From IMG/VR virus record IMGVR_UViG_3300014204_000004, positions 1-64,000 of that record: a DNA stretch of 64,000 nucleotides. One strand, 5' to 3'. The notes under the pieces were generated by a model, which worked only from the letters and a program-made list of their open reading frames with translations, did not search any database and was not told where the DNA came from. This DNA comes from a virus (lineage: Duplodnaviria; Caudoviricetes). Shown in pieces: positions 10,188 to 64,000 of this stretch (the first letter of the stretch is position 1; every line of letters starts with the position of its first letter). A program made the translations under genes and the position numbers.

Positions 10188-10228
10188 CCTCCCCTCTCTG
10201 TTCTCTCTCGGCAGAGGGGGGTTTTTCT
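10188..10228. terminator. Terminator between the convergent late (+) and early/middle (-) blocks
   Basis: Imperfect stem CCCCTCT(CT)G...CAGAGGGGG followed by TTTTT, located at the strand switch. Confidence 0.6.
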
Positions 10229-10229
10229 A

Positions 10230-10526
10230 TTATTTGTCCTCGTATAGATGACGCATTTTTCTACCATGCGTAAACGTGCCGATATACTGAGTGCTGTCCA
10301 AAGGCTTCTTATCGAAAGGTACACCTGTCTTGATTGCTCTGAACTTACGCTCTTTTGATGTAGAGTTAACAGGGTCGTTCATGTATTCGTACCAGATGTG
10401 CACCTTGTTGTAGTACGAACCGACATGAATTATCTTTGCGGTACGAGGCAACGACAGCGTGAACTCATCGAGGTGTATCGGAATCTCCATGCTGTCTACT
10501 AACTTGGTAAGTGTAAGGTCTGACAT
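10230..10526 (-). CDS. Conserved phage hypothetical protein
   Basis: LSLP..AKII.VG...IW...R.F....TG..F...YIGT...HLYE pattern seen in small phage proteins; coupled to its neighbour. Confidence 0.6.
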   Translation of the reverse strand: MSDLTLTKLVDSMEIPIHLDEFTLSLPRTAKIIHVGSYYNKVHIWYEYMNDPVNSTSKERKFRAIKTGVPFDKKPLDSTQYIGTFTHGRKMRHLYEDK

Positions 10527-31700: not shown

Positions 31701-33137
31701 TTACTTCCTCCTTTTTTCTTTATGTATCAGCTTGCCTCGATACTTCTCGATGGAGTTAAAGTTGATGAACACATCATCGTTAATCCAGTAGTATGTCTTC
31801 GCATCGATTGGTCGAATCTTAAGAAGGTACTTAGCAAGACTCTCTGCGTCCTTCGACAGCTTTATTCTGGTGTACTGCTCAACGAGGTCGAGAAACTCAA
31901 CGTGACTTTTCTTGTTGGCTCTCAGCTTGTCAGCTACCTCTTTTGCATACTCACCATCGTGATTGATTCTCGATGCGTCAATGTCGTGTGCCTTGTAGAA
32001 CTTGGTTAACCTCTTGAACTTTGATGAAGACTTTGGTGCAATCTGCGTCATACCTGCCGCCTCGCAAAACGAAACGTAGTTCGACATGACAGATGAAAGT
32101 ACCACCACTTTCTTATCTACCAGAGGTAGCGTTTCTCTCAGCAATCGTGCACCAAGACCAATCCCTCTAAACGTGGGATGTATTACCACACGACTGATTA
32201 TAACCGTGTTGTTACCTGACACCAATCTTTTCTCGTCTACGTTCAATTCTTCGTATCTCTCCCTGTCATCATCGCTCATGGGAAACGAACCAAGCATGTA
32301 GGTTCGCATCGGGACTGAGTAAACAATCAATCCAACAGGGTACCCTTTGAAAACTGCTGTGAACGTGTTGGTAATCATTGCCGGCATCTTCGTATTCTTG
32401 TAGTGGTACTTCAAGAGTGATATGTCGGGGTTCTTACCTAACTCTACCACAGATATTTCATCCATAAAAGGAGGCACACTACCGTTTCGAGGTAGTCTGT
32501 CTATGTGATGCTCACCAGAATAAGAGAAGGTGATTCTATGTGACGGGTTCAGCGAGTGCGTCAAATCGTTATGTGAGGTGGCAACAATCAGTCTCTTGTG
32601 GTAGCGTCTGAGTGCCTTTGCATAATTATATGCAACGATGTTGGCTGTTATTCTGTCGAGTAACGAGGTAAACTCATCGACCACGATTACGCGGTTTCTG
32701 AGTTCAAGTAATTTGGCGAGGTAGAATCTGTACTTCTGACCTTCTGATAATTGCCTGAAGCTTTTGAAGTAGATAAAAGCCTCTGATAGACCGACACTGT
32801 TCAAAAAGGAGATTGCTTGCTCGAAGGAGTTACCAATGCAATCTATCAGAGGTCTTCTATCTCTTCTCAGGTTTGAGTACATTGCAGTCATGCCATGCTG
32901 TGACGTATCAAAGTTGAAGCGTGTGGCGAGACCGTTGAGCAGAGTACTCTTACCACTACCACTGATACCGGTTATATAAATCACGTCCCACTTACTAGGG
33001 ACCTGTATTTGGTCGATGACCACATGCTCGTAGTCGTCTATGTCAAGACCGAAGGCATCGAATACTTGGTTGACACGTTCTGTTCTTTGTATCTTGCAGT
33101 TAAACGATGCGCTTACGGTATCAATTAGCGATGACAT
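31701..33137 (-). CDS. ABC-type ATPase fused to a GNAT acetyltransferase-like domain
   Basis: GISGSGKST, LSEGQKYR, VVDEFTS.LD and ATSH motifs; then HY and ISRVVIHPTFRGIGLG (acetyl-CoA-binding motif A). Confidence 0.85.
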   Translation of the reverse strand: MSSLIDTVSASFNCKIQRTERVNQVFDAFGLDIDDYEHVVIDQIQVPSKWDVIYITGISGSGKSTLLNGLATRFNFDTSQHGMTAMYSNLRRDRRPLIDCIGNSFEQAISFLNSVGLSEAFIYFKSFRQLSEGQKYRFYLAKLLELRNRVIVVDEFTSLLDRITANIVAYNYAKALRRYHKRLIVATSHNDLTHSLNPSHRITFSYSGEHHIDRLPRNGSVPPFMDEISVVELGKNPDISLLKYHYKNTKMPAMITNTFTAVFKGYPVGLIVYSVPMRTYMLGSFPMSDDDRERYEELNVDEKRLVSGNNTVIISRVVIHPTFRGIGLGARLLRETLPLVDKKVVVLSSVMSNYVSFCEAAGMTQIAPKSSSKFKRLTKFYKAHDIDASRINHDGEYAKEVADKLRANKKSHVEFLDLVEQYTRIKLSKDAESLAKYLLKIRPIDAKTYYWINDDVFINFNSIEKYRGKLIHKEKRRK

Positions 33138-49382: not shown

Positions 49383-49796
49383 TCACGCGTGTCTTCTTCT
49401 CACGCGTGTCTTCTTCTCAGGCACAGGCTCTTCTTCTACCACAGGTTCAAAAACAGGCTCTTCTTCAACAACAGGCTCTTCAACAACAGGCTCTTCGTCA
49501 ACTGCAGGTACTTCCTCTTCGACTGGTTCAGATTCTTCCTCTTCGATTGGTTGTTTAGATTCTTTCTCTTCGACTTCTTTGAATCGTATCTGAGGTGCAT
49601 ATCCCGGCATATTGTGCGTGTCTTTGGTCCACAACTTGCAGATGTTCTCTGCTACTTCTACCGCCTCTGCTTTGTCCTCGAAGTGTTTGTACTCTTTGAG
49701 GTAGCAGGCAGGTAGCATATCGATGGAAGGTTCGCTGTTTGTTACCTCTACTATTCTCAACCCGCCAGTTTTGTACTGTCTTGTTACTGTCCACAT
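49383..49796 (-). CDS. Hypothetical protein with EEPVV repeats
   Basis: AGGAGG RBS; acidic repeat tail. Confidence 0.6.
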   Translation of the reverse strand: MWTVTRQYKTGGLRIVEVTNSEPSIDMLPACYLKEYKHFEDKAEAVEVAENICKLWTKDTHNMPGYAPQIRFKEVEEKESKQPIEEEESEPVEEEVPAVDEEPVVEEPVVEEEPVFEPVVEEEPVPEKKTRVRRRHA

Positions 49797-49904
49797 ACTT
49801 TCCTCCTATGATAGAATTATTAGGCGACGTTGATAAGAACCGCCGCCTAAAAAATTCTACAACATAGCGTAGATAAAAGCAAACTGAACAGTAAGTGACC
49901 TAGG

Positions 49905-50641
49905 TTAGCTCTGCCTAAACAGTGCGTTACGACCGGGACTGTGCAAAACCACAACAAAGCCCTGCCCTACTCTACCTGCACTATACATTAGCGCACTTTA
50001 CTTTACCCCTCACTTTGCTCAACCAAACTTTACTGTCGCCTCGCACTTACTTAACTCTGCGATGAGACACCTTACCCTTGCCGTACATAACCGAGCTTTG
50101 CTCACACAGTACAGTGCTAAACCACACCATGACATTACTTTACAGCACCTTGCGACACCTTCACAGTACCAGAACAGCATATAACACTGCGGTGCCATAC
50201 CTAAACTTCACTTAAGTGCGCTCCGCTTTTACATTACAACACAAAACTATACTCATACATCAGTATACTGAACCATACCTGCACGATATATAACTAAACA
50301 ATGCCGTACCAACGCCTTACGTGACAGTGCTGTGCCATTACCATACATCATCAAACAATGCAGTACCTTCGCCTTCACGTAACATCTCTATACGATGCAA
50401 AACCACCACGCAACACTGCCGTGCAATACCATAACTGAACCATCCATACAATACCTTTACGTGACATCTCTATACGATGCAATTACTTTACGTATCTATA
50501 CAGTGCCTCTGCGATACTATTCTTTACCCTTACCACAAGAAACTGTGCAATACCAACGCTATGCTATGCTACGCCTTTACGAAACATTGGGTAGTATAAC
50601 CATACCTTTACTTCACTTTACGGTGTCGAGCTTGCGCTAGA
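49905..50641 (-). ncRNA. Pentamer-periodic array (GY-NNN)n downstream of the RAMP gene; candidate guide-RNA array
   Basis: On the + strand RC recurs every 5 nt, with a 6-nt step every 4-6 units, e.g. from 50279: ctgcac gatat ataac taaac aatgc cgtac caacgc cttac gtgac agtgc tgtgc cattac catac. No plausible ORF. Confidence 0.8.
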
Positions 50642-51292
50642 CTATGCTGTGAGCCTTTCTTTGACAGGCTCGATGGCGAGTACCTCGAAGCGGCCGTAAC
50701 CGCCGTTTCTGAACTGACCAAGACCAGCAAGCTCACCATAACTTAGCAACTCGATGAGCATGTCCCAGGTTATCTCTTTGTTCTTGAGAAGTTTGATGGT
50801 GAAGCCGAGTATCAGACCTGCGTTGACATAATCACTACGTGCCAGTGTTACACGCGGGCCCTGAGGTGTCATAACGCGAAGAGGTCTTTCTATGTAGCCG
50901 TCAGGCTGGCTACAGCCGAGGTAGATGCGACGAGGTGTGACGAACACGTACTTGTCTACCTTGCCACGTATACCCTTCATCTTCTCCATTGTGGCGGGTT
51001 TGCCTTTCTTTTCTTTCTCGACCAGAAAGGTCTGCTGAAGAACTTCGCCGGCATTCTTGAGAAATCCGCGAATCATGTAGTCATATATGAAAAGCCGGTC
51101 GGTTTCTTTCTCTCTGTGAAACCCCGTCCAGCCCTTTTCCTCTGTCTTGTCTACTGTCGCGCTCTCGTCTTCTTCGATATTGGCAGGCTTCTTCGACTCG
51201 ATGTAGGTCTTGTAAACTTCTGGGTCTTTTGATACTGTGCCGAGCATCTCTGTTACTAACTGAATATTTACCATGCGTTCATCAAAAATCAT
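50642..51292 (-). CDS. Stand-alone Cas7/RAMP-superfamily protein (Vipr-like)
   Basis: 216 aa. N-terminal strand I.L.TEMLG, helix YMIRGFLK.A, central ERP..R...RSD segment, and C-terminal glycine-rich loop GLGQFRNGGYGRFEV typical of RAMP/Cas7-Csm3. Confidence 0.8.
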   Translation of the reverse strand: MIFDERMVNIQLVTEMLGTVSKDPEVYKTYIESKKPANIEEDESATVDKTEEKGWTGFHREKETDRLFIYDYMIRGFLKNAGEVLQQTFLVEKEKKGKPATMEKMKGIRGKVDKYVFVTPRRIYLGCSQPDGYIERPLRVMTPQGPRVTLARSDYVNAGLILGFTIKLLKNKEITWDMLIELLSYGELAGLGQFRNGGYGRFEVLAIEPVKERLTA

Positions 51293-55327: not shown

Positions 55328-55356
55328 AGTTTAATACTTTTTCTGTTACAAGTCAA
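55328..55356 (-). promoter_or_regulatory. Sigma70-type promoter
   Basis: TTGACT-N17-TAAACT. Confidence 0.6.
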
Positions 55357-62647: not shown

Positions 62648-62840
62648 CTGTCACCTCGTTTGTCTTTTCGTAACACACCTCACAGTACAACTTGCCATCT
62701 TCCTCACTGACAATGCTATCGTCTACATTGTACCACTGACCACACTTGGCGCATTTGAACTCGTCAACGTAGGTACGGTAGGTCATGTCGCTACTTCTGC
62801 GCCTCATACCATCTTCACTGTACCTCACCTCACGGGGCAT
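62640..62840 (-). CDS. Small zinc-finger protein
   Basis: CAKCG...YCEVCY. Confidence 0.5.
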   Translation of the reverse strand: MPREVRYSEDGMRRRSSDMTYRTYVDEFKCAKCGQWYNVDDSIVSEEDGKLYCEVCYEKTNEVTDD

Positions 62841-63064
62841 GTCGTCACCTCACGCAGTATTTCTCTGTCTCGTAGAATCTTCACGTACTGGTTATACACA
62901 GACTGTTTGTTGCCTCGCAGACCAAACTCTTTCTTGATTGCACCATAAGCAGACTTGCCACTGCTATGTGCCATGCCTTTAATCTCAAGTGTAAGAGCCG
63001 CCTTAAGAGCGAGTAAACGGTAAGCTTCGATACTTGAACCAGTTAAAACTTGCGTATCATTCAT
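62825..63064 (-). CDS. Hypothetical protein (start MNDTQ; the ORF-track extension runs into the structured RNA)
   Basis: AAGGAGG RBS before the ATG at 63064. Confidence 0.6.
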   Translation of the reverse strand: MNDTQVLTGSSIEAYRLLALKAALTLEIKGMAHSSGKSAYGAIKKEFGLRGNKQSVYNQYVKILRDREILREVTTCPVR

Positions 63065-63085
63065 GTGCCCTCCTTCGGCGCGTAT

Positions 63086-64000
63086 AAAAAAGAGAGGTGA
63101 GGTAGACGAGGAGAGGTGAGCTTGTCGTTTCATCAGGCCACTCATGATCGCCCTCCGCGGTAGCTACGCGCTACACTCACCTCGACACATTCTAATGCCA
63201 CCTCAAGGTTGCGACCCTTGCTCAGTAAAGATGACAATTGTGCCACTACCTCATCTACCTCTTATAACCCCTCAAATACAACCACTACTCTTGTACTACG
63301 CCTCGATATTATAAACTACTCTGGTTACTACGGATCAGTTTGTATACTCTCACAACTCAAGTAAGCCACGAACTCAGCGTGGTACTCACTACACAAATGG
63401 TGCAGGTTCAATGTGAGCTAGAATAAATTCTACCTCTGCAACATAACCACACTCACCAGTGGTACATCTATATGCACCACGTATTACAAAGTTTAATACC
63501 TGAACTACCTAAAACCTCGTATTAAAATGCACGTAAAACCTCATTAAACCAATAACTCAGGTTATTAATACCTGTACATGATATTACCTCCTTATATTAC
63601 CACTAACCAAACCACATCAGCCACCTAACCACAGTCTAATAAGGTAGAATTGAACCAGTCTAGCCACGAAAAGAGCATACTACGGGAAGCACTGATAAAC
63701 CTGAATAGTATAACTTCCCTGCGTATGTATACTTATACTCGTTATTTCTTTACTTACCTCTTTAACCTCTATTCTTTTCAATCTACTCTTGCATATTCAC
63801 ACACAGTAGAGAACATAACAAAATGAGGTAAGGGCATAGTCAAGTATAGCCAAAAGTATGCCAGGTTATAGTCAAAATTACGTTTCCATGTATAAAACGT
63901 GTATAAAAGGTGGCACGGTCTAATCCTTATTTGTACCTAGCCCTCTACCTCGTCTGACATGGTAGCAAGGGAATCAGCTATACCTACTACTTCAGCCTTG
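63086..64000 (-). ncRNA. Large multi-domain structured RNA candidate (may extend beyond the window)
   Basis: No ORF of 60 aa or more. Many stems with G-U pairs on the - strand, including long-range 63249-61/63099-111 (13 bp), 63642-51/63426-35 (10 bp) and 63825-32/63753-60 (8 bp); ends in U6. Confidence 0.6.

Follow-up and report, generated by a model that had tools for sequence, protein, structure and literature searches.

The untranslated spacer upstream of the − strand gene at 62825–63064 ends in a strand-specific structured RNA element of approximately 185 nt. We tentatively read this 3′ domain, with a probability of about 0.4, as a cis-acting branched terminator or attenuator at which an early transcription unit ends, 9 nt ahead of the next RBS.

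Position of the spacer and structure of its 3′ domain

The window, a stretch of 64,000 nt, comprises bases 1–64000 of a 103,709-bp virus genome with a 123-bp terminal repeat. This tailed phage has a capsid of the HK97 type, and its large terminase, portal, protease, and major head genes are found from 72.1 kb on the + strand. Genes on the − strand include those for a family A DNA polymerase with a fused UDG domain, for DnaB-like and SNF2-type helicases, and others of this sort. Strand skews and ORFs delineated a single long − strand gene arm running from ~70 kb down to ~10 kb. A divergent control region with 47-nt repeats was located at ~70.0–70.6 kb. Its tandem repeats of ~47 nt (ATGGATAGGGTAATG...GGCTAACCTCAGAACT...) occupy ~70.3–70.46 kb of the genome, with the leftward arm on one side and the structural genes on the other. 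It is at this repeat-bearing divergent region near 70 kb that the leftward arm truly begins, ~6.5 kb upstream of the spacer. The initial annotation had placed the candidate at the head of the early region. Inspection of the sequence beyond 64000 did not bear this out, since − strand ORFs (63937–64209, 64412–64684, 64800–65405, and beyond) persist upstream to ~70 kb, which places the spacer inside the arm. The features of the spacer and its borders are as follows.

63937..64000, − strand: 3′ end of the upstream 90-aa ORF (genome 63937–64209), basic and Cys-rich
63274..63936, − strand: 5′ untranslated part, C-poor and U-rich, without excess folding
63092..63273, − strand: 3′ structured domain, MFE −79.4 kcal/mol
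63267–73/63092–98, − strand: basal stem, 7 bp, pair probability 0.67 (970-nt partition function)
63249–61/63099–111, − strand: main closing stem, 13 bp, pair probability 0.98–1.0 (970-nt partition function)
63184–63244, − strand: arm A of the 3′ domain
63113–63183, − strand: arm B of the 3′ domain, a multiloop closed by GAGGUGAGC/GCUCACCUC
63143..63156, − strand: alternative in-frame start, with GGAGG at 63152–63156 (hairpin loop, arm B), 6 nt, and ATG at 63143–63145
63086..63091, − strand: U6 run directly 3′ of the basal stem, a terminator-like tail
62825..63064, − strand: downstream gene, 79 aa, phrog_19182, with the SD GGAGG at 63069–63073

The length of the spacer depends on the start of the downstream gene. 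A start at 63145 adds 27 residues and puts the U6 run within codons (Phe-Phe). Public gene calls disagree on this point, giving 106 aa (JGI, upstream ATG) versus 79 aa (the other assembly). The PHROG match covers residues 32–86 of the 106-aa reading. The homologues in an IMG/VR relative (L003) and in Bdellovibrio phage phi1422 are 71 aa long with a start near ATG 63064, and the 27-residue extension is missing from them. Judged from these sequences, ATG 63064 is most likely the start, and the untranslated stretch would thus be 63065–63936 (− strand, 872 nt).

No − strand frame of more than 52 codons, stop to stop, was present between 63146 and 63936, and reading TAG, TGA, or TAA as sense opened no ORF in the spacer. 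A comparison of the stop-to-stop frames with PHROGs gave nothing significant (best E 0.006). The region had been described as ORF-free, which is correct for 63146–63936 (longest frame ≤52 codons) and incorrect for 63937–64000, where the 3′ end of the upstream ORF lies. No family match was found for this 90-aa ORF, and Pfam and protein atlas searches with the small proteins nearby were uninformative. We rejected an intron or a split gene; the flanking ORFs are complete, separate genes, each with its own SD and stop codon.

In the 3′ domain, the 7-bp basal stem and the 13-bp stem are separated by a 5-nt bulge and together close a three-way junction. Arm B contains three small hairpins, one of which presents GGAGG in its loop. 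The 62 pairs of the domain consist of 33 GC, 23 AU, and 6 GU pairs, and two CUCACCUCUC anti-SD-like words are found in its 3′ strand. Past the U6 run, 9 nt are followed by GAAGGAGGG and then by ATG, so that the SD and the ATG lie 9 and 22 nt after U6, respectively. The stems that the initial annotation had drawn in this domain were recovered at exactly its positions, including the inner GAGGUGAG/CUCACCUC, GUAGC/GCUAC, and CAAGG/CCUUG stems and the U6 run at 63086–91.

The segment 63086–63280 gave a folding z value of −4.86 on the − strand, where none of 200 shuffles folded as well, and −2.83 on the + strand. That the − strand scores better points to RNA of − sense, the orientation of the genes, as the target of selection. 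The MFE structure accounted for 9.5% of the ensemble (frequency 0.095) versus a median of 0.14% and a maximum of 6.3% in the shuffles, and the ensemble diversity was 17 versus 48±18. The domain adopted the same fold alone and in the full 915-nt context. When properly framed, it ranked 5–10 among the 2071 − strand 200-nt windows of the genome (top 0.5%), and complementary 6–8-mers were strongly over-represented in it (p≤0.017, word test). We conclude that a strand-specific structured RNA element of ~185 nt at the 3′ end of the spacer is real.

Other structured pieces were observed in the same arm. The spacer at genome 64189–64429 (− strand), between two 90-aa ORFs (64210–64411), had an MFE of −80.5 and a z value of −7.8 and was the most significantly structured among the pieces folded individually. 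It contains two perfect 12–13-bp hairpins, one of which is followed by UUUCU, and may mark sites at which the early transcript is processed or terminated. Since this neighbouring spacer (64210–64411) is also strongly structured, structured punctuation recurs in the leftward arm. A GC-rich multi-stem spacer at genome 65559–65769 (− strand) reached −80.3 kcal/mol, but its z value was only −1.6 (10 of 200 shuffles as good), which indicates that the stability comes mostly from composition. The top − strand window of the genome-wide folding scan was 32720–32960 (z −6.2), a stem of nearly 30 bp inside a 478-aa ATPase-like ORF (31701–33137).

Folding, composition, and motifs of the 5′ part

The 5′ part showed no excess folding. 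The z values were +0.29 (− strand) and −1.20 (+ strand) for 63281–63660 (380 nt) and −0.19 (− strand) and −0.76 (+ strand) for 63661–63940 (280 nt). Every window across 63281–63936 was ordinary in the genome-wide 200-nt scan, and inverted words were not in excess in the 5′ 650 nt (p 0.08–0.6). Over the full 915 nt, the − strand reached a z value of −2.5 and the + strand one of −2.8, each from 20 shuffles only. A “middle domain” had been proposed on the basis of a closure between 63642–51 and 63426–35. The two strands are a genuine 10-nt complement, but their pair probability in the 970-nt partition function is 0.001 and the 380-nt segment to which they belong is the one with z +0.29. With respect to the four further hairpins that had been listed, those at 63459–80 (z −3.3) and 63753–832 (z −3.1) were modestly unusual, and those at 63361–89 (z −0.8) and 63684–719 (z −1.95) were ordinary. 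The expectation of folding beyond that of shuffles therefore held for 63086–63280 and failed for the remaining three quarters of the candidate. Ornate structure had been claimed over at least 0.9 kb, and only ~185 nt proved exceptional, the other 650 nt being without a folding signal. The description of the spacer as a 0.9-kb ornate RNA is not supported.

The composition of the spacer is unusual. The − strand contains A 0.27, C 0.154, G 0.249, and U 0.327, compared with the coding block, where C is 0.21 and U is 0.23, in agreement with the G/U skew noted in the initial annotation. Only one 850-nt window on the − strand is poorer in C than the spacer. That window, 49760–50660 (C 0.139), is a non-coding, pentamer-periodic array with zero copies of GAGGT; base periodicity like that of the 50-kb arrays was absent from the spacer. 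Direct 6–8-mers were in excess within the 5′ 650 nt (p≤0.01, word test), and paired repeats ~32 bp apart were found in the spacer at 63875/63843 and 63330/63297.

The pentamer GAGGT, the core of the Shine-Dalgarno sites of this phage, occurs 10 times in the whole spacer versus 1.16 copies expected from composition (p 4e-7), which corresponds to 11.7 per kb versus 2.5 per kb in the coding block. This density is the maximum of the genome on either strand (10–11 per 850 nt; the next highest elsewhere is 7). Six of the 10 copies fall in the 5′ part, which is also rich in AGGUA words, and nothing longer than micro-ORFs follows the GAGGU copies there. The other motifs of the 5′ part are listed below.

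63565..63593, − strand: putative mini-ORF of 4 codons behind an ideal SD, AAGGAGGU, 6 nt, AUG UAC AGG UAU UAA (UAAUAA end), overlapping a 5-bp hairpin
63670..63677, − strand: boxA-like word UGCUCUUU, just 3′ of the hairpin 63684–63719
63650..63659, 63034–63043, and genome 64401–64410, all − strand: exact 10-mer ACTGGTTCAA, each copy after TAG or TAA
63308..63313, − strand: perfect TATAAT, ~35 nt upstream of the 3′ domain and without a −35 element; chance expectation ~0.6 per region
63485..63498, − strand: GTATTAAACTTTGT, identical over its first 12 nt (GTATTAAACTTT) to the −10 region of the strong phage promoter at 55333

The word UGCUCUUU is the sole sense-strand copy in the 10–70 kb − strand block, and its 5 occurrences in the window versus 3.5 expected correspond to chance frequency. 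Compared with the boxA consensus (UGCUCUUUAACAA in rrn; CGCUCUUA in lambda), the site at 63670–63677 agrees at 8 of 13 positions and then diverges, so that the boxA-like word may be taken as a lead only. The 10-mer ACTGGTTCAA has 4 exact copies in the 103.7 kb, three of them within 1.4 kb, where ~4e-4 such triplets would be expected by chance; neither flanking similarity nor terminal inverted repeats were found at the copies. At 63485, GTATTAAACTTT has no TTGAC −35 element, unlike the promoter at 55333. A scan with the sigma-70 consensus detected no − strand promoter in the spacer. Tandem TTGACTAT repeats were rejected as promoter parts, with spacers of 20–21 nt to any −10 element. Two DnaA-box-like TTATACA words, 11 bp apart, were at chance level. 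Individually, none of the TATAAT, boxA-like, GTATTAAACTTT, and ACTGGTTCAA oddities is decisive.

Known families and relatives

The spacer had been proposed to be a GOLLD- or ROOL-type RNA or a new ornate class, and a cmscan against Rfam (GOLLD, ROOL, OLE, introns, RNase P, tmRNA) had been suggested as the check. This search returned no usable match. At the gathering score, cmscan of the whole window gave 0 matches, and a permissive scan of 62800–64000 (E≤10) gave only rli43 at chance level (E 3.8). GOLLD (RF01998) and ROOL (RF03087) were rejected, as neither covariance model matched even at E≤10. OLE, group I/II introns, RNase P, tmRNA, 6S, known riboswitches, and ribozymes were likewise rejected, with no match in Rfam 15. 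ARAGORN found no tRNA or tmRNA in the window and no tRNA in the rest of the 103.7-kb genome.

GOLLD and ROOL usually lie in or beside phage tRNA islands, and GOLLD combines a conserved 3′ region with a looser 5′ region (PMC12286853). The spacer resembles them in being phage-borne, non-coding, and several hundred nt long. However, GOLLD and ROOL are elaborate over 580–800+ nt, whereas only 185 nt are structured here, and they occur with tRNA islands, whereas this genome is without any tRNA. Against the proposal stand the lack of an Rfam match, the lack of a tRNA island, and the 650 nt without a folding signal.

We also searched for relatives of the spacer itself. No match was obtained by blastn against 50,697 phage records (GenBank), and exact 16–19-nt words in viral, metagenome, and genome collections gave chance seeds only, without extension. 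The downstream protein led to one relative in IMG/VR (L003, 45% identical), in which the DNA upstream of the homologue is unrelated and lacks a large gap, and the phi1422 locus has no comparable element upstream of its homologue of the downstream gene. No relatives were found in IMG/VR via the DNA polymerase, and a PcfJ-like neighbour protein matched only itself among 5.8 billion proteins. An alignment of TerL led to 80 IMG/VR loci at 37–66% identity; the nearest terminases are 56–58% identical, and the phage is an orphan. Neither blastn nor nhmmer detected the spacer in these 80 loci or in those retrieved with the word scans. With a covariance model of the 3′ domain, the only hit in the whole genome, the 80 TerL-related IMG/VR loci, and the two loci that carry a homologue of the downstream gene was the domain itself, and no paralogues of the domain were found within the genome. 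The phage occurs in landfill and groundwater, and there are only two near-identical assemblies of it. The DNA contigs of a landfill run, the possible source, and of two groundwater runs are identical wherever the spacer is covered, so that there is no sequence variation to exploit. The sequencing runs listed for this phage included no RNA run.

Possible roles of the 3′ domain and the spacer

The transcriptional layout of the arm provides the setting for the terminator or attenuator reading. A TTGCAT-17-TATAAT promoter is present near 65.5 kb, upstream of the spacer, and six further promoters were found in the − strand block.

27258, 34234, 39872, 42633, 48549, and 55356, − strand: strong sigma-70-type promoters, TTGAC(A/T)-N17/18-TAAACT/TAAAGT then TTAT

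Several of the six carry an extended −10 TG, and each lies 30–45 nt ahead of an SD and a start; by their sequence, they look like host-polymerase middle promoters, spaced every 3–8 kb. No recognisable − strand promoter was found between 63.06 and 55.4 kb. The genes in this interval would therefore require read-through or antitermination if the 3′ domain terminates. Canonical terminators with a hairpin and a U-run are rare in the − strand block. The only textbook intrinsic terminator in the genome lies at 10200–10230 (+ strand; CCCCUCUCUG...CAGAGGGGGG then UUUUU), where the gene arms converge.

In the preferred reading, the large branched stem and U6 would end or attenuate the upstream early unit, which has its promoter near 65.5 kb. 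The 3′ domain would control access to the ~8 kb of genes that follow, reached by read-through or antitermination, and it would probably also be a 3′-end protector. The 5′ 650 nt are a C-poor untranslated RNA studded with orphan Shine-Dalgarno-like GAGGU words and, being C-poor, would be a poor substrate for Rho. We infer termination, read-through, and Rho resistance, and the function of the 3′ domain is read from the layout alone.

The 3′ domain shares with intrinsic terminators and attenuators a G+C-rich stem followed by a U-run, a place between co-directional genes, and a position just before the next RBS. The G+C-rich 7+13-bp stem stands directly before U6. However, canonical intrinsic terminators have loops of 3–8 nt, whereas the stem of the 3′ domain encloses a 137-nt branched core, and a consensus terminator scan does not call the domain. 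Neither an alternative antiterminator pairing nor a ligand-binding family was identified in the 3′ domain. Three further considerations speak against a terminator: an efficient one 9 nt ahead of an RBS would silence ~8 kb of genes unless an antitermination mechanism exists; the start at 63145, if used, would place U6 in a coding frame; and the excess of SD-like words is not accounted for.

Processive antitermination leaders, such as lambda nut/N, rrn boxB-boxA-boxC, and the HK022 put RNA, are long untranslated stretches at the head of phage or rRNA transcripts that must take RNA polymerase past terminators lying further downstream. The spacer hairpin followed by UGCUCUUU resembles the rrn order of boxB and boxA, but only 8 of the 13 boxA positions match, and no homologue of N, Q, or put was found. 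In the early region of T7, stable RNase III stems lie between early cistrons of a polycistronic transcript and are simple ~60-nt hairpins with internal loops. At 20 bp, the predicted stem of the 3′ domain would be of sufficient length for RNase III, and strong structure is also found in the neighbouring spacer; unlike the T7 sites, the 3′ domain is large and branched. In STAB-SD and polypurine 5′ stabilisers and other SD-motif RNAs, orphan SD-like words bind 30S subunits without productive translation (PMC4113751, PMC3997798). The spacer is similar in carrying orphan Shine-Dalgarno-like words in untranslated RNA, and by analogy these may bind 30S subunits. The known stabilisers differ in having a single site near the 5′ end, whereas the spacer has 6–10 copies over 0.85 kb.

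Several other explanations were weighed against the terminator or attenuator reading, and two of them also centre on the 3′ domain. The domain could be a stand-alone sRNA gene of ~200–215 nt, transcribed from a promoter in the spacer (e.g., TATAAT at 63308–63313), ending at U6, and acting in trans. Its compact, well-defined fold with a terminator-like tail of its own, the perfect −10 hexamer ~35 nt upstream, and the two CUCACCUCUC anti-SD-like words in the 3′ arm are consistent with such a gene. However, the TATAAT has neither a −35 element nor an extended −10, it is expected ~0.6 times per region by chance, and neither homologues nor genome paralogues were found; we regard an sRNA as unlikely. 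It is decidedly unlikely that the domain is a translational control leader, in which the loop SD at 63152–63156 would be shown and the ATG at 63143–63145 buried so as to set the ratio of the 106- and 79-aa products or to couple translation. The homologues of 71–79 aa lack the extension, whose low-complexity sequence is dictated by the stem and U6, and an open frame of 27 codons is not unusual by chance. These points outweigh, in our estimate, the two in-frame SD and ATG pairs and the split of the public gene calls between 106 and 79 aa.

The remaining explanations concern the whole spacer. The genome-maximum density of GAGGT (10 versus 1.16 expected, p 4e-7), the C-poor and G/U-rich composition, and the excess of short direct words would fit one ncRNA of ~0.85 kb belonging to a new class, made early, with an unstructured, Rho-resistant body that carries about ten anti-16S-complementary GAGGU sites and serves as a decoy for 30S or an RNA-binding protein or as a self-stabilising scaffold. 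The branched 185-nt 3′ domain would then be the anchor, protector, and terminator of the same molecule. We consider this very unlikely in view of the 650 nt without a folding signal, the absence of an Rfam match, a homologue, and a promoter from our searches, and the location inside an operon and not beside tRNAs. A role at the DNA level, as a protein-binding array, replication origin, or other genome landmark, is suggested by the excess of direct but not inverted repeats in the 5′ part, the repeat pairs spaced by ~32 bp, the three copies of ACTGGTTCAA within 1.4 kb, and the two DnaA-box-like TTATACA words 11 bp apart. This role is highly doubtful; folding of the 3′ domain is much better for the − strand RNA than for its + strand counterpart, which argues for selection at the RNA level, the repeats are imperfect and of small size, the DnaA-like words match no better than chance, and no replication initiator gene is adjacent. 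It is just as improbable that most of the spacer is without function, being the remains of gene decay or of an old insertion, and that it ends in a terminator. Phage genomes rarely retain 0.65 kb of junk, the composition does not resemble coding sequence that has decayed or been inverted, the search for remnant protein similarity found none, and the GAGGU excess is strongly non-random, although the sequence is an orphan and its 5′ 650 nt folds ordinarily.

The main value of these results lies in correcting the first reading of the region, which neither is a GOLLD/ROOL-like giant RNA nor heads the early region. The cluster of orphan Shine-Dalgarno words would be a further curiosity in its own right. 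If the branched stem and U6 truly end or gate transcription, the 3′ domain would be an unusually elaborate terminator or attenuator and would mark the early-to-middle boundary of an uncharacterised orphan 104-kb phage.
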